This document shows positions 14,573 to 32,037 of a stretch of DNA of 64,000 bases, in pieces. Below the pieces are notes generated by a model. That model made no database searches and was not told the DNA's origin. It worked only from the letters and a program-made list of their open reading frames with translations. Position numbers and translations under genes: made by a program. The DNA comes from an uncultured cyanobacterium (lineage in GTDB: Bacteria; Cyanobacteriota; Cyanobacteriia; Cyanobacteriales; CAWCAG01): the NCBI GenBank assembly GCA_963793425.1, contig CAWCAG010000009.1, positions 32,001 to 96,000 of the forward strand, in the 5' to 3' direction. Within the stretch, counting starts at the first letter, position 1. The number at the start of each line of letters is the position of its first letter.

Positions 14573-16894
14573 ATGAGTTTTCTTAGTAATCTTAATTCTT
14601 CTCAACGTAGTGCTGTAGAACATTATTGTGGCCCTTTGTTAGTTGTTGCGGGGGCGGGTTCAGGTAAAACTAGGGCTTTAACTTTTCGTATTGCTAACTT
14701 GATTGTTGAACATAAAGTTAATCCTGAAAACATTTTCGCCGTAACCTTTACCAATAAAGCGGCTAAGGAAATGAAGGAACGGATTGAGAAATTATTTGCT
14801 AATAAATTGGCAGAGGCTAAATATGGTCAACGTTTAGACTTGTTGCCTCCTCCTCAACAAACTCAATTGCGTTCCCAGGTTTATAAACAAACAATCAAAC
14901 CCCTTTGGATTGGAACTTTTCATAGTTTATTTGCACGAATTCTGCGTTTAGATATTAATAAGTATCAAGATGAATCAGGGCGACAGTGGCAGCGAAACTT
15001 TTCTATTTTTGATGAATCTGATGCTCAAAGTTTGGTAAAAAATATTGTCACTAAACAGTTAAATTTAGATGATAAAAAGTTTAATTTTCGTTCTGTACGT
15101 TATGCCATTAGTAATGCGAAAAATCAGGGTTTATCTCCCCAGGATTTCTTGAAAGAACAACCTAATTATCGCGGCAGAGTAATTAGTGAAGTATATAACG
15201 AATATATTAATCAACTAGCAGCTAATAATGCCCTGGATTTCGATGATTTAATCTTAGTTCCCTTAAGAATTTTCCAACAAAACGAAACAGTATTAGGCTA
15301 TTGGCATCGGCAGTTTCGTCATATCTTAGTAGATGAATATCAAGATACTAATCGCATTCAATATGAATTAATTCGTCTTTTAAGTACTAATGGTGAAACC
15401 AACAAAGCTAGTTGGGATTGGCGCGATCGCTCGGTTTTTGTCGTAGGAGATGCTGACCAATCTATTTATAGTTTTCGCATGGCAGACTATAAAATCTTAT
15501 TGGAGTTTCAAGAAAACTTTGGTGATGGTTTGCCTGATGATGATACGAGAACAATGGTTAAATTAGAAGAAAACTATCGTTCTAGGGAAAATATTCTCGA
15601 AGCTGCCAACCAACTTATTAATAATAATACTCAACGTATTGAAAAAGTTCTTAAACCTACAAGAGGTTCAGGGGAACCAATCTATCTTTACAAAGCAGAT
15701 GATGAAATAAGAGAAGCAAAATTTGTTGTTAATAAAATTCGTTATTTAGCCCAAGAAAACCCAGAAATAGATTGGGGCAGCTTTGCGATTTTATATCGTA
15801 CTAATGCTCAATCTCGTGCTTTTGAAGAAGTATTGCGGGGGCAAATTCCTTACTTAATTGTGGGGGGTTTAAAGTTTTATGATCGTAAAGAAATTAAAGA
15901 CGCTTTAGCTTATTTAAGGGCGATCGCTAATCCAGCCGATACCGTGAGTATTTTAAGGGTAATCAATACTCCCCGGCGGGGCATTGGTAAAGCGACCATC
16001 GAATCCCTTTTAGGGGCTTCTCAAGAATTAGGTATTCCCTTATGGGAAATTCTTAAAGATGAAACTTCTGTTAACACCATGGTAGGGCGCAAAGCTAAAG
16101 CGGTTAACAAGTTTACGGAGGTAATTAAGAAGTATCAAGAACAAATTAACAACCTCAGCGCCACGGAAATTATTCAAGGAGTGATGGAAGATTCTGATTA
16201 TGTTGATGATTTGAAAAGTAAGGGAACCGATGAAGATGCTAACCGCCTAGAAAACGTCTACGAATTATATAACGCGGTGGCACAGTTTCAAGAAGAATAT
16301 GAAGATAAGAGTTTACAAGGTTTTTTGGCAAATGCTTCTTTAGCGTCAGATTTAGATAATTTAGAAGATGGGCAAAAAGCGGTTTCTTTAATGACGTTGC
16401 ATTCTGCCAAAGGGTTAGAGTTTCCCATTGTGTTTATGGTGGGTTTAGAACAAGGATTATTTCCCAATATCAGAAGTTTAAATGACCCCACTTCTTTAGA
16501 AGAAGAACGTCGTTTATGTTATGTGGGCATTACCCGCGCCCAAGAACAGTTATTTATTAGCCACGCTAGGGAACGTCGTCTTTGGGGGGCAAGGGATGTG
16601 GCGATACCTTCACAGTTTTTACAAGAAATTCCTCGCGATTTGGTTGATAGCAAGGTGACGAAAAGTTTTAGTACAAGTTTGCGACGTAAGAAGGCTAAAA
16701 CTGAGGCGAATGAAGTTAGTAATGGGGTTAAGTATAGTTGGGAAAAAGGTGATTTGGTGTTACATAAAACCTTTGGAGAAGGAGAAGTTACCCATGTTTT
16801 TGGGGAAGGAAACAAGATGAATTTAGCGATTAAGTTTCCTGGTTTAGGTCAGAAGATTATTGACCCGAAGATTGCTTCTTTGGAAAAGTTGTGA
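14573..16894 (+). CDS. pcrA: ATP-dependent DNA helicase PcrA/UvrD
   Basis: VVAGAGSGKT, VDEYQDTN, VGDADQSIY, LEENYRS, TLHSAKGLEF, EERRLCYVGITRA motifs; C-terminal Tudor-like domain. Confidence 0.95.
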   Translation: MSFLSNLNSSQRSAVEHYCGPLLVVAGAGSGKTRALTFRIANLIVEHKVNPENIFAVTFTNKAAKEMKERIEKLFANKLAEAKYGQRLDLLPPPQQTQLRSQVYKQTIKPLWIGTFHSLFARILRLDINKYQDESGRQWQRNFSIFDESDAQSLVKNIVTKQLNLDDKKFNFRSVRYAISNAKNQGLSPQDFLKEQPNYRGRVISEVYNEYINQLAANNALDFDDLILVPLRIFQQNETVLGYWHRQFRHILVDEYQDTNRIQYELIRLLSTNGETNKASWDWRDRSVFVVGDADQSIYSFRMADYKILLEFQENFGDGLPDDDTRTMVKLEENYRSRENILEAANQLINNNTQRIEKVLKPTRGSGEPIYLYKADDEIREAKFVVNKIRYLAQENPEIDWGSFAILYRTNAQSRAFEEVLRGQIPYLIVGGLKFYDRKEIKDALAYLRAIANPADTVSILRVINTPRRGIGKATIESLLGASQELGIPLWEILKDETSVNTMVGRKAKAVNKFTEVIKKYQEQINNLSATEIIQGVMEDSDYVDDLKSKGTDEDANRLENVYELYNAVAQFQEEYEDKSLQGFLANASLASDLDNLEDGQKAVSLMTLHSAKGLEFPIVFMVGLEQGLFPNIRSLNDPTSLEEERRLCYVGITRAQEQLFISHARERRLWGARDVAIPSQFLQEIPRDLVDSKVTKSFSTSLRRKKAKTEANEVSNGVKYSWEKGDLVLHKTFGEGEVTHVFGEGNKMNLAIKFPGLGQKIIDPKIASLEKL

Positions 16895-16918
16895 TAGTAA
16901 GCTCAAAAGTTACATAAA

Positions 16919-18936
16919 TCTGTGGGTAGAGTTAGTTCTATTGGGGGACTAAGCCCCCCAAACCCGCATCTCAGGGAAACAAGTGTTTCCCCACACCCCT
17001 TCCTAACCGCTTCGCTCTTGGTTGGTTATGTTTGGCTGGCTAATTCCTGGTTGCTTTATCGTCGGAGATAGGCCTGGTGGTAGGGTGCATTGGGATTTAG
17101 GCTCGTTCCTTCTTTTGATTAGTCTGTGGGTAGAGTTAGTTTTATTGGGGGATTGACCCCCCAAACCCGCATCTCAGGGAAACAAGTGTTTCCCCACACC
17201 CCTTCCTAACCGCTTCGCTCTTGGTTGGTTGTGTTTGGCTGGCTCATTCTCGGTTGCTTTATCGTCGGAGATAGGCCTGGTGGTAGGGTGCATTGGGATT
17301 TAGGCTCGTTCCTTCTTTTGATTAGTCTGTGAGTAGCGTTAGTTTTATTGGGGGACTAAGCCCCCCAAACCCGCCCAGCAGGGAAACAAGTGTTTCCCCA
17401 CACCCCTTCCTAACCGCTTCGCTCTTGGTTGGTTATGTTTAGTTGGCTAATTCCTGGTTGCTTTTTCGTCGGAGATAGGCCTGGTGGTAGGGTGCATTGG
17501 GATTTAGGCTCGTTCCTTCTTTTGATTAGTCTGTGGGTAGAGTTAGTTTTATTGGGGGACTGACCCCCCAAACCCGCATCTCAGGGAAACAAGTGTTTCC
17601 CCACACCCCTTCCTAACCGCTTCGCTCTTGGTTGGTTATGTTTGGCTGGCTAATTCCTGGTTGCTTTATCGTCGGAAATAGGCCTGGTGGTAGGGTGCAT
17701 TGGGATTTAGGCTCGTTCCTTCTTTTGATTAGTCTGTGAGTAGCGTTAGTTTTATTGGGGGACTAAGCCCCCCAAACCCGCCCCTCAGGGAAACAAGTGT
17801 TTCCCCACACCCCTTCCTAACCGCTTCGCTCTTGGTTGGTTATGTTTAGTTGGCTAATTCCTGGTTGCTTTTTCGTCGGAGATAGGCCTGGTGGTAGGGT
17901 GCATTGGGATTTAGGCTCGTTCCTTCTTTTGATTAGTCTGTGGGTAGAGTTAGTTTTATTGGGGGATTGACCCCCCAAACCCGCATCTCAGGGAAACAAG
18001 TGTTTCCCCACACCCCTTCCTAACCGCTTCGCTCTTGGTTGGTTATGTTTAGTTGGCTCATTCTCGGTTGCTTTATCGTCGGAGATAGGCCTGGTGGTAG
18101 GGTGCATTGGGATTTAGGCTCGTTCCTTCTTTTGATTAGTCTGTGAGTAGCGTTAGTTTTATTGGGGGATTGACCCCCCAAACCCGCATCTCAGGGAAAC
18201 AAGTGTTTCCCCACACCCCTTCCTAACCGCTTCGCTCTTGGTTGGTTATGTTTAGTTGGCTAATTCCTGGTTGCTTTATCGTCGGAAATAGGCCTGGTGG
18301 TAGGGTGCATTGGGATTTAGGCTCGTTCCTTCTTTTGATTAGTCTGTGGGTAGCGTTAGTTTTATTGGGGGATTGACCCCCCAAACCCGCATCTCAGGGA
18401 AACAAGTGTTTCCCCACACCCCTTCCTAACCGCTTCGCTCTTGGTTGGTTATGTTTAGTTGGCTCATTCCTGGTTGCTTTATCGTCGGAAATGGGCCTGG
18501 TGGTAGGGTGCATTGGGATTTAGGCTCGTTCCTTCTTTTGATTAGTCTGTGGGTAGAGTTAGTTTTATTGGGGGATTGACCCCCCAAACCCGCATCTCAG
18601 GGAAACAAGTGTTTCCCCACACCCCTTCCTAACCGCTTCGCTCTTGGTTGGTTGTGTTTGGCTGGCTCATTCTCGGTTGCTTTATCGTCGGAAATGGGAC
18701 TGGTGGTAGGGTGCATTGGGATTTAGGCTCGTTCCTTCTTTTGATTAGTCTGTGAGTAGCGTTAGTTTTATTGGGGGACTAACCCCCCAAACCCGCATCT
18801 CAGGGAAACAAGTGTTTCCCCACACCCCTTCCTAACCGCTTCGCTCTTGGTTGGTTGTGTTTGGCTGGCTCATTCTCGGTTGCTCTGTCGTCGGAGATAG
18901 GCCTGGTGGTAGGGCGCATTGGGATTTAGGCTCGTT
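16919..18936. repeat. Non-coding tandem array of ten 203-204-bp hairpin-containing units
   Basis: Unit starts (TCTGTG) at 16919, 17123, 17326, 17530, 17733, 17937, 18140, 18343, 18546, 18749; last unit truncated at about 18936; no ORF in the track. Confidence 0.97.
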
Positions 18937-19022
18937 TTTGAAATCGATGATAATCAGTACTCTTGTTTTACTATATTTTTCCTGATTTCGGTATTTCCGC
19001 AAAACTGAAATGCTTCCTCTCC

Positions 19023-21552
19023 CTACTTCCTCATCTCTTCCTGGAGATAAGCAAGATTATTCCGAATAGTTACTGTGTTGGGGTGGTTGCTGCCTAAAAC
19101 TTGTTCGCATAACTCCAAAGCTTGTTGATATAGAGGTTCTGCTTCTGTATACTTTCCTTGTGATTTGTAGAGTCCTGCCAGGTTGTTGAGACTCGATGCT
19201 ACATCAGGATGTTCTTCTCCTAAAAGGCGTTTTCTTAGCTCCAAAGCTTGTTTGATATAAAGGTTCTGCTTCTGTATACCTTCCTTGGGATTCGTAGAGT
19301 GATGCCAGGTTGTTGAGACTCGATGCTACATCAGGATGTTCTTCTCCTAAAAGGCGTTTTCTTAGCTCCAAAGCTTGTTTGTATAAAGGTTCTGCCTCTG
19401 TATACCTTCCTTGGGATTTGTAGAGTAATGCCAGGTTGTTGAGACTGGTTGCAATAGAAGGATGTTCTTCTCCTAAAAGGCGTTTTCTTAGCTCCAAAGC
19501 TTGTTGATATAAAGGTTCTGCTTCTGTATACCTTCCTTGGGATTCGTAGAGTGCTGCCAGGTTGTTGAGACTGGATGCTACATCAGGATGTTCTTCTCCT
19601 AAAAGGCGTTTTCTTAACTCCAAAGCTTGTTGATATAAAGGTTCTGCCTCTGTATACCTTCCTTGGGATTTGTAGAGTCCTGCCAGGTTGTTGAGACTGG
19701 TTGCTACATCAGGATGTTCTTCTCCTAAAAGGCGTTTTCATAACTCCAAAGCTTGTTGATATAAAGGTTCTGCTTCTGTATACCTTCCTTGGGATTTGTA
19801 GAGTCCTGCCAGGTTGTTGAGACTGGTTGCTACATCAGGATGTTCTTCTCCTAAAAGGCGTTTTCTTAACTCCAAAGCTTGTTGATATAAAGGTTCTGCT
19901 TCTGTATACCTTCCTTGGGAATAGTAGAGTCATGCCAGGTTGTTGAGACTGGTTGCTACATCAGGATGTTCTTCTCCTAAAAGGCGTTTTCTTAACTCCA
20001 AAGCTTGTTGATATAAAGGTTCTGCCTCTGTATACCTTCCTTGGGATTCGTAGAGTGATGCCAGGTTATTGAGACTGGATGCTACATCAGGATGTTCTTC
20101 TCCTAAAAGGCGTTTTCATAACTCCAAAGCTTGTTGATATAGAGGTTCTGCCTCTGTATACCTTCCTTGGGATTCGTAGAGTTCTGCCAGGTTGTTGAGA
20201 CTCGATGCTACATGAGGATGTTCTTCTCCTAAGCGAGTTTCTACTTCTACCCAACACTGGTTTAAATAAGGTTCTGCTAATTTGTATAACCCCTGTCCTT
20301 TATAAAACCAAGCTAAACCAAGGAAAGACCAAATCAAGTCTTCATCATCGGCTACAACATCAAGATGCTTTGACGGTACTTCTTTGAGGTGAGGAATAGC
20401 TGCTTTTACCCTTTGAATATCTTTTAGAGTAGGTGTTTGAGGAATCGTCTTAGCAATAGCCACCATCGCCTCAGCAAAAGCCGTTGCAAACGCCTCTTTC
20501 TGCACCGAGGCTGCTAACTTTTCTTGGCAAAATACCCGAATCAAAGCATGAACTTTGTAACCGTTTTCTTTCTCATCAAACTGAATTAAATGCCGTTGAT
20601 AAAGTTGCCTTTTCCCCTGATTCAAACTCCCTTTACTCCAACTAAGATGACTTTCCGCCGCTTCCTTCACCAACTCCCAAGGTAACAAAGCCGGGGCAAA
20701 CAGCCCCATAAACATAGCCAAATCCTTCGCTTCTGTGTCCAGCTTTGCCCAACTCAACTCAAAAGCTGCCCTAACCCCTCTTTCTGCCGTACCATTAATG
20801 CTGCGATCTACTGCCTCGCAACCCAAACCCTCCTCTTGCAGCAATTCCCCCATCTCCTGCAAGCTCAAGCTGGGATCTTCCCTTAAATACCAACCCACCA
20901 ACTCAATACCCAAAGGTAAATAACCCAACCAAGCTAACAACTCCCTCGCCGTAGCAGCTTCTTGTGTAACTCGCTGTTTCCCCAACAGCTTAATCAATAA
21001 CTCCTCTGCCTTCTCCAGGGACAACACATTTAAAGGCATCTCCGTAAAACTGGGGCTGAGGTTACGCACTCTTGTAGTTAAAAGGAGAGAAAACCTCTTA
21101 TTTTGGGGTAAAACTTCCTGTAACTTCGTCTCCTTCCCCACATCATCCACCACTAGCAAAACCTTTCCCTGTTCGGGTTGCCAATGCTGCCAACACCACC
21201 TCACCTGCTGCAAAATATCGAGGGGTTGCCCCTGAGAGTTTTTTTGCGGAATCTCCAAACCCAGATTAAGCTGAATAAACTCTACCACCGCCGTAGCCAA
21301 GTCATTCACCCGCACATCAAACCAACAAACTCCCCCACCATAAACATCCTGATATCTCTTTACATATTGCGTCGCCAACTCCGTCTTGCCCACACCACCC
21401 ATTCCTGCCACCGCAGAAATAGCTATACCTTCTCCTTGGCATAACTTTGTGTGGAGTGTCTCCAACTCCTTCTCCCGTCCCACAAAATACTTTGAACCAG
21501 AATATTTAAGAGATTGTAATGGCTTTGAGTCCTGTTCCCCAGGCGAGTTCAG
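19023..21552 (-). pseudogene. NB-ARC (STAND) ATPase + TPR repeats, NLR-like; interrupted as assembled
   Basis: FVGRE, Walker A GMGGVGKT, Walker [31 protein letters not shown]s; in-frame TGA at 20116, 19930 and 19738 and a 1-nt insertion near 19251. Confidence 0.85.
19115..20232 (-). repeat. Nine near-identical 126-bp (42-aa) TPR-coding repeats
   Basis: AGGATGTTCTTCTCCTAA marker at 19206, 19333, 19459, 19585, 19711, 19837, 19963, 20089, 20215 (spacing 126, once 127). Confidence 0.95.
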
Positions 21553-22023
21553 TCAATAGTTATTATTGTTAACAGTAAAGCTACCAGGGCCAGAATTATT
21601 ATACTGCCCACCTTCAATCTTTTGCTGATAAACCCCAATACTTTCTGCTAACTTAGGGCGATTTTCCTTTGCCGCTTGTGCCTGTAATCTTTTGTTTAAA
21701 ACACCCAACTGCTTTTTAAAAACCTGATTTTCTTGCGCTGCCTCTTTTACCCGTTGCCCTAAAATCTCTAACTCTTGGCGCAACTCCCCATCAGACTCAA
21801 CCTCCTTTGCCACAGCCTCCAAAACCGCCACCCCAATATCTTCAGGATCTTCTACTGCTGCTTCCAACGCCTTAAACTTTTCCGGAGATTTACCAACCAA
21901 CAAACTCTTAACCTTGCTTCCCTGTTGCCAAGCTGCCTCAACAACCTTTTCTCCTGCTTTCTCCAGAGTTTTATTACCAAGCAAAACTCCCAAGGCAATT
22001 AATGTAGGAATAATTGGTTCCAT
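21553..22023 (-). CDS. Small helical Bell-like domain protein with C-terminal N/Q/G-rich amyloid-like tail; in frame with the downstream NB-ARC-TPR
   Basis: Hydrophobic N-terminal helix (MEPIIPTLIALGVLLGNKTLEKAGEK), helical body, tail IGVYQQKIEGGQYNNSGPGSFTVNNNNY; family call is by resemblance only. Confidence 0.6.
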   Translation of the reverse strand: MEPIIPTLIALGVLLGNKTLEKAGEKVVEAAWQQGSKVKSLLVGKSPEKFKALEAAVEDPEDIGVAVLEAVAKEVESDGELRQELEILGQRVKEAAQENQVFKKQLGVLNKRLQAQAAKENRPKLAESIGVYQQKIEGGQYNNSGPGSFTVNNNNY

Positions 22024-22092
22024 TATTCTGTCATAGTTAAAACTGTTGTTGCTATTATAGCTTGAGAGATTTTTTGTTAGTCACAGATAAAT

Positions 22093-22135
22093 GATCCTCC
22101 CAAGTCCCCCTTCCCAAGGGGGATTTAGGGGGATC
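22093..22135. repeat. Cyanobacterial palindromic short repeat / possible terminator after gnd
   Basis: GATCCTCCCAAGTCCCCCTT-CCC-AAGGGGGATTTAGGGGGATC imperfect palindrome. Confidence 0.6.
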
Positions 22136-22160
22136 ATCAAACTAAATCAACTAAAAAAAC

Positions 22161-23585
22161 CTAAGCTTGTTCCATCCACTCTGTATGAGTAAACTCACCT
22201 CTGGGCTTGTCGATTCTTTCGTAGGTATGGGCCCCGAAATAATCCCGTTGTGCCTGAGTTAAGTTTTGGGGTAAACTGCCACGACGATAGCTATCGAAGT
22301 AATCCAACGAAGCACTAAAAGCAGGAACAGCAATACCTGAACTATTGGCAGTAGCAAGGACTTCCCGCCATGCCTCTTGGCGATCTAGGATACTTTGCTT
22401 AAACTCTGGGGCCAAGAGTAGGTTAGGTAAAAGAGGATTGTCTCGGAAAGCCTCCTTAATCTTATCCAAGAAACTAGCCCGAATAATACAACCTCCTTTC
22501 CAAATACGAGAAGTTTCGCTTAAATTGAGGTTATAGTTAAACTCGCTAGATGCCTTACTTAACAAAGCCATGCCTTGGGCATAGGAACACATTTTAGAAC
22601 AGTAAAGGGCATCCCGAATCTTATTAACAAAAGCTTTCTTGTCTCCTTCAAACTTACCCATCGGGCCAGTCAAAACCTTAGAAGCAGCCACCCTTTCATC
22701 TTTGTAAGCAGACATAACGCGGGCATTAACTGCTGCATAGATAGTGGGTATAGGTACGCCTAATTCCAAAGAACTAACCACAGTCCAACGTCCAGTACCC
22801 TTTTGCCCAGCAGCATCAAGAATTAATTCTACCAGAGGGCCTTTAGTTTCTGGATCAATATACTTAAAGATGTCGGCGGTAATCTCAATCAAGAAAGAAT
22901 TGAGTTCATCTGTAGTATTCCACTCAGCAAACACTTCATGTAACTCAGTATGGCTTAAGCCTAAAGCATTTTTCATTAAATCATAGGCTTCAGCAATAAG
23001 CTGCATATCTCCATACTCAATGCCATTGTGAACCATTTTCACATAATGACCCGCACCTCCAGGGCCGATAAAAGTCACACAAGGACCATCATCCACTTGG
23101 GCAGCAATTTTGGTTAAAATGGGTTCCAACTTTTGGTAAGCTGCTTCTGTCCCTCCTGGCATCAAACTAGGGCCATTAAGGGCCCCTTCTTCGCCGCCAC
23201 TAACACCCATACCCATATAACCTAGTCCCGTAGCTTCTAGTTCTTGGGTACGTCTTTCGGTATCATTATAAAGAGAGTTACCGCCATCGATAATCATATC
23301 TCCTTCTTCTAGCAAAGGCTTAAGCTGTCCAATAACTGCATCCACAGGTTTACCAGCTTTAACCATTACTAGGATTTGGCGGGGACGTTCTAGACTTTCG
23401 ACAAATTCCTCCAAAGAATAGGCTGCTTTCACGTCCTTATCTTGGGCGCGGTTGGCCATAAAATCCTTCGTTTTCGTGGGAGTTCGGTTATAAACTGCGA
23501 TGGGAAAACCGCGACTTTCTACATTAAGGGCCAAATTTTCCCCCATTACCGCTAAGCCAATTACGCCGAAATTTCTTTTACTCAT
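22161..23585 (-). CDS. gnd: 6-phosphogluconate dehydrogenase (NADP-dependent, decarboxylating)
   Basis: GVIGLAVMGENLALN, VKMVHNGIEYGDMQ, QAQRDYFGAHTY; ATG at 23585 preferred over the upstream TTG. Confidence 0.97.
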   Translation of the reverse strand: MSKRNFGVIGLAVMGENLALNVESRGFPIAVYNRTPTKTKDFMANRAQDKDVKAAYSLEEFVESLERPRQILVMVKAGKPVDAVIGQLKPLLEEGDMIIDGGNSLYNDTERRTQELEATGLGYMGMGVSGGEEGALNGPSLMPGGTEAAYQKLEPILTKIAAQVDDGPCVTFIGPGGAGHYVKMVHNGIEYGDMQLIAEAYDLMKNALGLSHTELHEVFAEWNTTDELNSFLIEITADIFKYIDPETKGPLVELILDAAGQKGTGRWTVVSSLELGVPIPTIYAAVNARVMSAYKDERVAASKVLTGPMGKFEGDKKAFVNKIRDALYCSKMCSYAQGMALLSKASSEFNYNLNLSETSRIWKGGCIIRASFLDKIKEAFRDNPLLPNLLLAPEFKQSILDRQEAWREVLATANSSGIAVPAFSASLDYFDSYRRGSLPQNLTQAQRDYFGAHTYERIDKPRGEFTHTEWMEQA

Positions 23586-23733
23586 AAAACTCTTTGCCAA
23601 TTCTAATATCTATCCCGCGTGGGGGTAAGCTACACTCTCAACAGTAGCCCGATCTTCTTGATTCATGGCTAAAGAAGAGATTAAGAGTTTTGTCTTTTGT
23701 TAAAAGTAGCTGACTATTTTCAATGAACAGTTA

Positions 23734-24297
23734 TCAATAATCAATGATCAGTGGGGGAGTGTTAGGCGGTTTTAGTTGGAAGAGTGAACATTTGATGCCG
23801 TAGTATTTATCTGTTGTCCCCAGGGGGAGCATTTTTAGACGTTCCATGACGCGAATTGAACGCTTATTTTCTGCCCTGGTGATCGCATAAATTACCGGCA
23901 AATTTAAACTATCAAAGCCATACTCAAGAATCTTTTTTGCCCCCTCTGTGGCATAACCTTGACCCCAACTTCTACGCCGCAAATGCCAGCCAATTTCAAC
24001 ATCTTGAGTTAATTTTCCTTCCGCATCAGGTAATTGCTTGAGAATAATTGCCCCAATAAGCTGTCCTGTGGCTTTTTCTACAGCAGCCCAATAACCAGTG
24101 CCATTGTTAAGGGCATCGTAACGGTCTACATTTAATTGCAGGCGATCGCGTACACTAGTAATGCTTTTTTCAACTTTACCATCACCGATATAACGCATTA
24201 CTTCACGATCACCATAAATCTCCCAAGCGGCTTGGGCATCTTGTTGAGGTTGCCAAGGGCGGAGTAATAAGCGTTGGGTGATAAACTCCTTATTCAT
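23734..24297 (-). CDS. GNAT N-acetyltransferase (RimJ/RimL type)
   Basis: TQRLLLRPW, EIGWHL...WGQGYATEGA, N..SIRVMERL. Confidence 0.85.
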   Translation of the reverse strand: MNKEFITQRLLLRPWQPQQDAQAAWEIYGDREVMRYIGDGKVEKSITSVRDRLQLNVDRYDALNNGTGYWAAVEKATGQLIGAIILKQLPDAEGKLTQDVEIGWHLRRRSWGQGYATEGAKKILEYGFDSLNLPVIYAITRAENKRSIRVMERLKMLPLGTTDKYYGIKCSLFQLKPPNTPPLIIDY

Positions 24298-24495
24298 CGC
24301 CGTTAATTTATCTCTTCCTTTTGATTTTATGCTCTGAAGGTAACTTCTTTCTTAAGGAAGTGTTAACCTCAAAGCTTATTTACTTAGCATATTACTAAAC
24401 TTCTGTTTCGTTCTTGCCGGCAAATACAGACCGAAAGAGAGTAAGTTGAACCTAAATATAAATTTACCCAATCTCTGAGCGAAGAAAGTAGTAAT

Positions 24496-25452
24496 ATGAG
24501 TCGTACAGCCTGCTTGATTTTTAATCCTGTTGCTGGACAAGGGGATGCTGACCAAGATTTAGAAAAAATCAAGACCCTTCTTGACCCCAAAATTGATCTT
24601 GATATTAAGCTAACAACCAAAGAGGTTGATGCAGGTCAACTGGCACGAGAGGCCGTAGCAAGGGGGGTTGAAGCTGTTATCGCTTCGGGGGGAGATGGTA
24701 CTCTTTCTGCGGCGGCCGAAGCTTTAGTAGAAACGGATATTCCTTTGGGAATAATTTCTAGGGGGACGGCCAATGCTTTCGCCTCAGCTTTAGGAATTCC
24801 TGATGTCATTGAAGAAGCTTGTCAAATGATTCTTGATGGCAAAACTAGAGTTGTAGATGCGGCTGTGTGCAACGACAAGCCCATGGTACTTTTAGCCGGG
24901 ATCGGTTTTGAAGCAGAAACGGTTAAAGATACCTCTCGCGCCTCCAAAAATCGTTGGGGAATGCTAGCTTATGTTCTCGCTGGCATCAAGCAACTGGCAG
25001 ATTTAGAAGCTTTTGAAGCTACCATTGAAACAGAAGATAAAATTATTGAAGTTACTGCCACAGCCATAACCGTTGCTAATGCTGCCCCCCCTTCATCAGT
25101 TTTAGCCCAAGGGCCAGCAGGTATTATTGTTGATGATGGCTTGCTTGATTTAACCTTAGTAGCCCCTAATAGTCGGGCTGGGGCTGTGGCAGCTTCTTAT
25201 CATTTATTACAAACTGCTTTTAGTAACGAAGCAGCAGAAAGAGATGATATTGGTTATCTACGGGCTAAAGAAATCAAAGTTACTACTAATCCTCCTCAGC
25301 AAGTGGTTCTGGATGGAGAATTAATTGGTAAAACTCCTGTTAGTATTAAATGTATTCCCCAATGCTTGACTATTTTTGTTCCCATGACGAAAGCAGAAAG
25401 GCCAGCAGAAAAGTTGGCAGGACTACCGGAGTTAAAGGTTGAGGATAAGTGA
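24496..25452 (+). CDS. YegS/DAGK-family lipid kinase
   Basis: IFNPVAG, SGGDGT, RGTANAFA, GIGFEA, LDGE motifs. Confidence 0.9.
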   Translation: MSRTACLIFNPVAGQGDADQDLEKIKTLLDPKIDLDIKLTTKEVDAGQLAREAVARGVEAVIASGGDGTLSAAAEALVETDIPLGIISRGTANAFASALGIPDVIEEACQMILDGKTRVVDAAVCNDKPMVLLAGIGFEAETVKDTSRASKNRWGMLAYVLAGIKQLADLEAFEATIETEDKIIEVTATAITVANAAPPSSVLAQGPAGIIVDDGLLDLTLVAPNSRAGAVAASYHLLQTAFSNEAAERDDIGYLRAKEIKVTTNPPQQVVLDGELIGKTPVSIKCIPQCLTIFVPMTKAERPAEKLAGLPELKVEDK

Positions 25453-31636: not shown

Positions 31637-32037
31637 GTAAAAAACGTTCTGCTCAGAAATTATCAAATCGTTCCCCCGCAGAAAAAGTAAGTTTTGTGAT
31701 CGCTTTATCTATCCTTTCTTTAATCGTCGGATTGGTGTTTTATAGTTGGTTTACAGGAGAAAACGAGCCTCCGATTTTATCTGTAAGTGTGCAAACAGAA
31801 ATTCGTCAAGTTGAAGGGCAATTCTATATACCTTTTAAGGTAACGAACAAAGGAGGGGTTACAGTAGAATCAGTGCAGATCATTGCTGAATTAGAAGAGC
31901 AAGAATTACAGGAAATTGGGCAACAGGAATTTAACTTCCTTTCCGGCGGGGAAGTTAGGGAAGGAGCATTTATTTCTCCTCGCGATCCTAATTTAGGGAA
32001 ATTAATGATTAGGGTAGCAAGTTATAAGTTGCCTTGA
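31633..32037 (+). CDS. TIGR02588-family protein
   Basis: ATGA overlap with the upstream gene; TM helix, then FYIPFKVTNKGGVT and FLSGGE motifs. Confidence 0.75.
   Translation: MSKKRSAQKLSNRSPAEKVSFVIALSILSLIVGLVFYSWFTGENEPPILSVSVQTEIRQVEGQFYIPFKVTNKGGVTVESVQIIAELEEQELQEIGQQEFNFLSGGEVREGAFISPRDPNLGKLMIRVASYKLP

Follow-up and report, generated by a model that had tools for sequence, protein, structure and literature searches.

A conserved in-frame stop codon with a downstream RNA element, a probable readthrough cassette, joins effectors to NLR receptors in cyanobacteria

The closest described counterparts of the locus analyzed here are the two-gene Bell/BASS-NLR clusters of Actinobacteria and Cyanobacteria. 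In the sections of Dyrka et al. (2020, bioRxiv 10.1101/2020.01.06.895854) that describe them, a short helical effector, marked by a hydrophobic helix at its N-terminus, an acidic position 2 and a C-terminal motif, is followed directly by a collinear receptor with an NB-ARC or NACHT domain and TPR repeats; an alpha/beta hydrolase or a CHAT domain can replace the effector, and filamentous cyanobacteria are among the hosts. The motif occurs twice in these clusters, once at the C-terminus of the effector and once at the N-terminus of the NLR, which is started independently. As portrayed there, fungal HET-S/NWD2 and related NLR-amyloid pairs also rely on amyloid templating of a membrane-targeting effector, nucleated by the NLR, but they consist of two separate eukaryotic genes and involve no recoding. 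The locus studied here lies on the minus strand of a 64,000-nucleotide stretch (the window; positions 32,001 to 96,000 of contig CAWCAG010000009.1, assembly GCA_963793425.1) from an uncultured cyanobacterium. It shares the layout of the two-gene clusters and differs from them in having a single motif copy, a start-less NLR, and an in-frame stop followed by an RNA signal. We propose that this stop is probably read through by a minority of ribosomes, so that one frame would encode both the effector and an effector-receptor fusion.

Read from 22023 down to 19023, the frame contains the junction ...AAC TAT TGA CTG AAC TCG..., in which the effector open reading frame (ORF) ends with NNNNY before the TGA. 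Behind this stop the zero frame runs LNSPGEQDSKPLQSLKYSGSKYFVGRE into an NB-ARC domain and then into a TPR array, so that a collinear NB-ARC/TPR receptor lies directly 3' of the effector ORF on the same strand. The match to PF00931 reaches 62.6 bits against a gathering cut-off of 23.5, covers residues 25 to 233 of a 477-amino-acid (aa) query and includes the Walker A motif. The window frame has no ATG between the junction stop and the Met of the P-loop, and its first canonical start after the stop is a GTG at 21483 (codon 24), which encodes the V of the FVGRE motif and was the start picked by the ORF track. A sequence-only reading of the window had described exactly this arrangement, namely an effector and an NB-ARC part in one frame across TGA-CTG, no ATG before the ATPase, a called GTG start inside FVGRE, and a repaired frame of about 999 aa. 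Its factual statements all hold, and bridging all breaks yields 1000 codons. The motif tail is present as a single copy at this locus, and the NLR frame has neither a second motif nor a start of its own: no homologous motif was found at the N-terminus of the window NLR, where the linker from the stop to FVGRE is only 22 codons long. We found no paralogue of the effector plus NB-ARC part in the genome to which the window belongs.

To what extent do relatives keep this stop? In a first search, the genomes of 60 relatives were queried with the read-through protein, carrying X at the stop. Seven strong matches ran from the upstream ORF into the NB-ARC domain with one internal stop, in every case at the same place, straight after a variable N/Q/G/H-rich tail and before Leu-x-(S/P)-(S/P). 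None of the 20 further strong NB-ARC matches of this search had the junction; they carried fused N-domains, or their own ATG with a motif of about 25 aa. In a second search, limited to one genome per species and using an alignment of the post-stop parts as query, the best 80 of 488 relatives were all cyanobacterial and comprised 23 loci with the junction, 39 with their own start and a short N-terminus, 17 with a fused N-domain, and one (L113) that was open to the contig start. The junction class considered below has 31 members: these 23, the seven of the first search, and the window. Within it, the stop is TGA in 29 loci and TAG in two, never TAA, and the following codon is CTG (16 loci), CTA (13) or CTC (two), never TTA or TTG. 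A stop followed by CT is thus found at the junction of 31/31 homologous loci, well away from what chance would give. The check proposed in the sequence-only reading, whether homologues keep an in-frame stop, above all TGA-C, right after the tail, therefore has a positive answer. An in-frame stop at this place with a non-Leu codon behind it occurred in none of the compared loci. For comparison, the 2034 long ORFs of the window's own genome end with TAA (52%), TAG (26%) or TGA (21%); C comes next after 7.9% of these TGAs and CT after 6.2% of all stops, and TTA and TTG together account for 59% of the Leu codons in this genome. The 31 loci are akin, so these context counts are not independent trials; the stop/CTN pattern itself is discrete, which indicates that constraint acts on the nucleotide sequence.

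The constraint appears to extend into the RNA behind the stop. Eight nucleotides (nt) downstream, a stem of five base pairs (bp) encloses an 8-nt loop, with the consensus GYCNG-AACGGGAA-CNGRY. Across 27 ungapped sequences, 95.4% of the cells of this stem 1 are paired, compared with 82% in column shuffles (0/500 as high), and sliding the partner strand leaves at most 36% paired; RNAalifold returned the same stem unprompted. Compensatory changes are seen at three of the five pairs (CG 14/UA 10; CG 12/GC 6/UA 3/UG 3; GU 13/GC 12), and at one of the covarying positions a synonymous third base changes in step with a base of the partner codon that alters the amino acid. The G-U pairs, which are frequent, would fit an RNA of the sense strand and argue against a DNA element. 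In addition, the GGGA of the loop can pair with a UCCC located nine nt 3' of stem 1. The four pairs of this second stem are formed in 22 to 25 of 26 rows, with CG, AU and GU changes, and its variants include GCGGA/UCCGC (L140), CAGGA/UCCUG (L119), CGGA/UCCG (L023) and GAG/CUC (L073). Stem 1 and stem 2 probably combine into a minimal H-type pseudoknot of 5 + 4 bp, in a cassette of about 45 nt. A GC-rich 5-bp hairpin within the 80 nt before FVGR was found in 26/31 junction loci, 7/39 own-start loci and 2/18 fused loci, where the 18 include L113, one of the two hairpin carriers. By this comparison the hairpin is specific to the junction class.

A peptide pattern, VK.NPP, follows the hairpin in 19/31 junction, 5/39 own-start and 0/18 fused loci. 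We weighed it as separate proof of linker translation but rejected the argument, as the pattern is mostly confined to the junction class and overlaps stem 2; its conservation may lie at the RNA level.

Both sides of the stop also bear the mark of protein-level selection. The ratio of non-synonymous to synonymous divergence (dN/dS; Nei-Gojobori, 15 pairs, values where dS was unsaturated) ranges from 0.14 to 0.34 in the effector ORF and from 0.17 to 0.29 over NLR codons 25-420, a pattern indicative of purifying selection before and behind the stop and in line with the values below 1 on both sides that the sequence-only reading had asked for. Over the first 24 codons after the stop, most pairs have a dS below that of the flanks, as one would expect where an RNA element overlaps the coding sequence. 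The NLR frame stays open for at least 500 codons in 28/31 loci, the exceptions being L013, L110 and the window. Loci in which the stop has been replaced are rare. The sole sense variant, L113 from a Trichodesmium metagenome-assembled genome, has TGG CCG where its Okeania sister has TGA CTG; it keeps the hairpin, and its frame is open for at least 1128 codons. The refuting outcome named in the sequence-only reading, a sense codon here in all homologues, did not occur: 31 loci with a stop stand against one relative with TGG. That locus shows that Trp at the stop position, and a fused product, are tolerated. In itself, L113 presents as a natural fixed fusion. In a Moorena pair (L077/L105), the all-in-one sister L105 lacks motif, stop and hairpin, all lost together. 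An intact fusion of effector, motif, sense codon and NLR was not present among the best 150 effector representatives, of which the three longer ones are deletion fusions or carry unrelated extensions, and a word-indexed search for longer fused effector relatives, which the tool itself grades as weak evidence, found none.

If the NLR is not translated through the stop, it needs a start of its own, and such starts are scarce. The interval from the stop to FVGR contains no ATG in any of the 31 loci and, in 19/31, no GTG or TTG either, and 4/31 have no canonical start before the P-loop. The distribution of the motif is complementary. In own-start relatives, the NLR begins with ATG and its own N-terminal motif, for instance MTDENWQGINLKGGNPTIKDNVINF, while in the junction loci the same kind of motif closes the effector, as in ...NWQGINIKGGTNTISGNTFNF-stop of L074. 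With one copy of the motif and a start-less NLR, the receptor of a junction locus would therefore gain the motif only if the stop is decoded. The window fits this scheme: its tail, KLAESIGVY..., resembles the own-start NLR motif KFAEKIGAF... (pattern K[LF]AE.IG), and an N-terminal motif MPEDSGKFAEKIGAF... is found in the own-start NLRs L123, L125, L131 and L134, all of them close to the window NLR in their NB-ARC domain and counted with its nearest relatives there.

One two-gene locus, L038 (G022:C35), keeps the hairpin, TCGTCCGAACGGGAACGGGTA, behind the motif on its NLR side, a sign that own-start forms can arise from cassette forms.

Three other routes to the NLR product were discarded. A start at the Leu codon is incompatible with the CTA or CTC found there in 15/31 loci; a +1 frameshift of the prfB type (NNU UGA C) fails because the NLR lies in the zero frame; and adenosine-to-inosine editing of the stop was set aside by reasoning, as the hairpin loop does not include the stop, and editing would have to act at different positions in TGA and TAG.

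The combination of features has close parallels among known recoding signals. UGA followed by C is the weakest stop context in Escherichia coli, and in phage Qbeta bacterial ribosomes read through the UGA of the coat gene to make A1, a minor extended product needed for function. We know of no conserved downstream pseudoknot for coat/A1, which moreover differs from the present case in being a phage gene without a link to NLRs. A U at position +4 reduces readthrough, according to the abstract of PMC5289835. In viral type II readthrough, as summarized in the part of Firth et al. (2011, PMC3159437) that deals with it, UGA-CUA or UGA-CGG is followed by a 3' stem-loop after a 7-9-nt spacer in alphaviruses and tobraviruses, and murine leukemia virus combines UAG, an 8-nt spacer and a pseudoknot. 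The cyanobacterial junction resembles these viral signals in UGA-CU(A/G), the 8-nt spacer, the compensatory changes, the lowered synonymous divergence and the two predicted products that share an N-terminus. It differs from them, as far as that account goes, in that the viral signals act on eukaryotic ribosomes and eRF1 with stems mostly of 11-12 bp or more, whereas here a bacterium (RF2), stems of 5 + 4 bp and a chromosomal gene are involved.

We therefore regard it as likely that the junction class uses programmed stop-codon readthrough, yielding abundant free effector and a rare effector-motif-NLR fusion; the leaky termination put forward from the window alone gains support from the 31 kept stops, the dN/dS values and the covarying RNA 8 nt downstream. 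In the mechanism that we propose, a poor stop (UGA, rarely UAG), CU at positions +4/+5, the 8-nt spacer and the small H-type pseudoknot would form the recoding cassette. Most ribosomes would terminate and release the free effector-motif protein, while a smaller share would insert an amino acid at the stop, probably Trp by way of near-cognate tRNA-Trp(CCA), and continue through the linker into NB-ARC and TPR, giving an effector-motif-NLR fusion that bears the identical motif. Upon sensing a trigger, the NLR would oligomerize, and its clustered motifs would nucleate an amyloid fold that templates the pool of free effector, as in the two-gene Bell/BASS-NLR systems. What we infer from the patterns described above is the readthrough, its level, the inserted residue, the templating of amyloid, and any part that the system plays in cell death or defense. 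We also favor, with some reserve, the broader proposal that a transferable readthrough cassette encodes both halves of an NLR-amyloid switch in one frame, keeping the receptor far below the effector and the motifs always matched.

What kind of effector would be released? Its N-terminus MEPIIPTLIALGVLLG forms a hydrophobic helix with Glu at position 2, and ME(P) opens most rows of the effector alignment. An AlphaFold2 model built on a 27-sequence alignment is all-helical over residues 4-128 (predicted local distance difference test [pLDDT] 74.9, predicted template modeling score 0.65), with a disordered tail at 132-156 (pLDDT below 50) that is rich in N, Q and G. According to the passages of Dyrka et al. 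(2020, bioRxiv 10.1101/2020.01.06.895854) that define the Bell domain, its hallmarks are a hydrophobic N-terminal helix and a negative residue at position 2 or 3. With 156 aa and helices over 4-128, the window effector also agrees with a protein of about 120-140 aa with a helical domain of about 100 aa. The effector matched nothing in Pfam, NCBIfam or PADLOC, these libraries containing no Bell model, and NCBIfam and PADLOC returned FxSxx_TPR and others below cut-off for the window NLR. In a comparison aimed at helical bundles of the HeLo, MLKL, Rx-CC or Babybell type, Foldseek against the PDB gave 0 matches at E <= 0.001, with Rx-CC ranked 10th (E 4.3), and the best VIA-align Z was 4.8. The label "Bell-like" attached to the effector by the sequence-only reading thus stands as far as length, N-terminal helix and acidic position 2 are concerned and falls short on the motif match, which the adjacent NLR protein does not provide; it is a label by apparent sequence features and not by demonstrated homology. 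When the 27-sequence effector profile was compared with 1.84 billion proteins, 1286 representatives were found at E <= 0.001, and 147 of the best 150 are 86-174 aa long.

The cassette is not tied to one kind of head or body. In most loci the junction follows Bell-like effectors, in two (L023, L077) alpha/beta hydrolases (Abhydrolase_6), and in one (L062) a CHAT protease. A covariance model of the cassette (R1), which includes the stop and the stem, was run on 151 genomes sampled across the phylum and matched in 14 of them, belonging to 12/80 genera, with none in one family represented by 50 genomes. Sixteen of the 18 matches are true cassettes, several of them before NACHT-like NTPases (GEPGAGKTT) and one with TGA CCG. 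Because the model contains both stop and stem, these matches give no independent support for either. In a quick IQ-TREE analysis of the NB-ARC domain (101 rows), the junction class is dispersed, and well-supported branches require at least 17 changes; fused relatives fall into the same NB-ARC clades (17/80 loci among the best 80 of 488, e.g., L105). One Microseira genome contains near-identical NB-ARC bodies, once with an own-start head (L064) and once with a junction head (L079). L013 and L031 differ by dN 0.68 in the effector and 0.07 in the NLR, and L097 and L132 show the reverse (0.09 and 0.53). This shows that effector heads and NB-ARC bodies have evidently recombined at the joint, and the conserved cassette may double as the recombination joint. 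A second and stronger cassette is present in the window's own genome at C9:341171-341227 (L141:1501-1557; R1 45 bits, E 4e-7). There, behind a Bell-like ORF, its motif is repeated in tandem in a copy that differs by 1 nt and shifts the frame. TGA CTA GAG TCG... comes next, and the NACHT-like NTPase that follows (GEPGAGKTT) is interrupted by a stop some 40 residues beyond its P-loop and is clearly broken.

Several observations weigh against readthrough, or against parts of the evidence for it, and concern first of all the RNA. The single-sequence folding energies are unremarkable (z against shuffles 0.03 for the window, 0.15 for L016, -0.43 for L018, -1.0 for L126 and -2.8 for L117), so the case for the hairpin is a comparative one throughout. 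The loci are related and recombining, and the covariation counts are therefore not independent events; much of the covariation of stem 1 reduces to two haplotypes, S..T and P..V. A fifth pair of stem 2 was rejected, being unpaired in 21/26 rows, and L096, L147 and L157 (loop GAG(A/G)GGCA) show no obvious stem 2 partner, so that the second helix may not be universal. In the window, as in L016 and L018, the hairpin has 4 bp and a 5-nt loop, compared with 5 bp and a loop three nt longer in the class, and R1 scores the window site at 21 bits (E 0.19). On the side of the protein, a GTG or TTG located 2-17 codons before FVGR in 12/31 loci could in principle start a motif-less NLR. Finally, the window assembly has four further breaks in its TPR array, three TGAs and one frameshift.

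These breaks bear on the alternative that survives best, namely that the window copy is a dead relic of a cassette that is real in its relatives, which would be compatible with readthrough at the level of the class. Apart from the breaks themselves, the short stem with its z of 0.03 and R1 E of 0.19 speaks for such a relic, and so do the clearly broken second cassette of the same genome and the truncated NLR frames of L013 and L110. We compared the assembly with contigs from four public runs of sediment metagenomes (X1-X4), which come from one study and possibly from the assembly's own source. Contigs of 4/4 runs bridge the junction TGA unchanged. The TPR breaks behave differently (Table 1). 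At 20116, T>C accounts for a depth of 29.9/29.9 in X1, 4.57/4.57 in X4, 6.1/12.1 in X2 and 0/6.04 in X3, restoring TGG; at 19931, C>A plus C>G make up the entire depth in X1 and X2; and the extra base at 19251 is missing in the sole covering contig, from X3 (4.92/4.92), X1, X2 and X4 having no cover there. As only short contigs cover the TPR array, which Tandem Repeats Finder places at 19110-20232 with a period of 126 and 8.9 copies, cross-mapping between units is possible. Several of the breaks may be assembly or strain artifacts of an array with 94% identity, or population polymorphism, and their reality is doubtful. Together with the intact effector and NB-ARC parts of the window, this makes the dead relic less likely than not.

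Table 1. Features of the candidate readthrough locus in the window (positions in the 64,000-nt stretch).
Feature	Position	Strand	Remarks
Effector ORF, 156 aa, ATG start	21556..22023	-	stop TGA 21555-21553
Effector C-terminal tail ENRPKLAESIGVYQQKIEGGQYNNSGPGSFTVNNNNY, candidate amyloid-signaling motif	21556..21666	-	only copy at locus
In-frame TGA, proposed leaky (readthrough) stop	21553..21555	-	same place in 31 loci
CTG (Leu) codon after stop, supplies +4/+5 'CU'	21550..21552	-	
Linker, 22 codons, stop to FVGRE	21487..21552	-	without ATG, GTG, TTG
Hairpin CCUG-GGGAA-CAGG	21531..21543	-	place of class stem 1; centroid fold
NB-ARC NTPase domain	20851..21477	-	PF00931, E 4.4e-17; P-loop GMGGVGKT at 21382-21405
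TPR_12/TPR_10 array	19026..20232	-	126-bp units, 94% alike; Pfam TPR_12 E 1.2e-148
In-frame TGA, TPR (ELxKRL)	20116..20118	-	TGG in X1, X4 (all depth), X2 (half)
In-frame TGA, TPR (NLAxLY)	19930..19932	-	TTA or TCA in X1, X2; X4 keeps TGA
In-frame TGA, TPR (ELxKRL)	19738..19740	-	kept in X1, X2 contigs spanning site
1-nt insertion (frameshift), second-to-last TPR unit	19250..19252	-	near 19251

A second alternative denies readthrough for the class as a whole: the locus would be an ordinary two-gene operon with true termination, whose NLR begins independently near FVGR, at a GTG, a TTG or a non-canonical codon, or is translated by termination-reinitiation. The stop-CUN-pseudoknot element would have another role, for example in translational coupling or pausing, in mRNA stability, or as a recombination joint for swapping effector heads. 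The GTG or TTG codons shortly before FVGR in 12/31 loci would suit such an operon, as would the shuffling of heads and bodies at the joint (L013/L031, L097/L132) and the scattering of the junction class over the NB-ARC tree with its 17 or more changes. In addition, Bell and NLR ORFs are often separated by 10 bp or less, or overlap, in the two-gene loci covered by the pertinent section of Dyrka et al. (2020, bioRxiv 10.1101/2020.01.06.895854). However, an independent start is hard to find: no locus has an ATG, 19/31 have no canonical start before FVGR and four none before the P-loop, and in 15/31 the stop is followed by CTA or CTC, neither of them a start codon. An NLR made in this way would have neither effector domain nor motif, unlike every own-start relative. 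The operon also leaves the kept frame unexplained, as we saw no out-of-frame cassettes, and the G-U pairs argue for an element of RNA and not of DNA. We thus consider an ordinary operon unlikely.

The plain nonsense mutation that the sequence-only reading had kept as its alternative, striking by chance a formerly fused all-in-one NLR, finds some backing in the other stops of the same assembly frame, yet we reject it as highly improbable for the junction stop because 30 further loci, spread over many genera, have the same stop at the same place, together with a preserved CTN context and RNA structure and with selection on both sides. Dedicated recoding machinery, either selenocysteine insertion by a hairpin like the selenocysteine insertion sequence (SECIS), whose bacterial layout a UGA with a nearby hairpin does resemble, or a suppressor tRNA, deserves next to no credence, given that Aragorn found neither a tRNA-Sec nor a suppressor among the 50 tRNAs of the window's own genome, that two of the 31 loci use TAG, and that the sense variant has Trp and not Cys.

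The surroundings of the locus can be described briefly. Directly upstream, at 22161-23600 on the minus strand, lies a 479-aa ORF whose translation, on inspection, resembles 6-phosphogluconate dehydrogenase, and between it and the effector ORF a GC-rich inverted repeat GATCCCCCTAAATCCCCCTTGGGAAGGGGGACTTGGGAGGATC (22075-22135) may be a terminator. Directly downstream of the NLR end, a 203-bp tandem array extends over 16919-18936 (9.9 copies, 95% alike); each unit contains GC-rich inverted repeats GGGGGACTGACCCCCC and spurious ORFs of 53 and 44 aa. A search of window positions 15000-24500 against Rfam (E <= 1) assigned neither the junction nor the 203-bp repeats to a family and returned two chance eukaryotic matches only.

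Returning to programmed readthrough, how does it relate to what has been described? NLR-amyloid signaling is itself known; its coupling by recoding, as proposed here, would be new. A search of the full-text literature, with subscription journals and bioRxiv supplements outside its scope, retrieved no report of readthrough at cyanobacterial NLR loci, and the words readthrough, stop codon and in-frame are absent from the key bacterial amyloid-signaling papers, including Dyrka et al. (2020). According to its methods as far as they concern the pairing of motifs, the pipeline of that study required motif matches on both proteins, and single-motif junction loci would therefore have been missed. All-in-one NLRs have exactly the architecture of the predicted readthrough product, without a stop and usually without an amyloid motif. 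If the present proposal is true, the junction loci represent a third NLR architecture beside the two-gene and the all-in-one forms, with one frame, two products and one motif. It would explain why many cyanobacterial Bell-type effectors lie beside NLR ORFs that seem to have neither start nor motif, loci that would be annotated wrongly or passed over by gene callers and motif-pair screens. Structure-stimulated readthrough signals have, to our knowledge, so far been characterized mainly in eukaryotic viruses; the cassette would be a conserved signal of this kind in a bacterial chromosomal gene family. The level of readthrough would then set the ratio of receptor to effector. Phages perturb translation fidelity or tRNA supply, and it is tempting to speculate that the immune sensitivity of these cyanobacteria may be tied to the very same two quantities.

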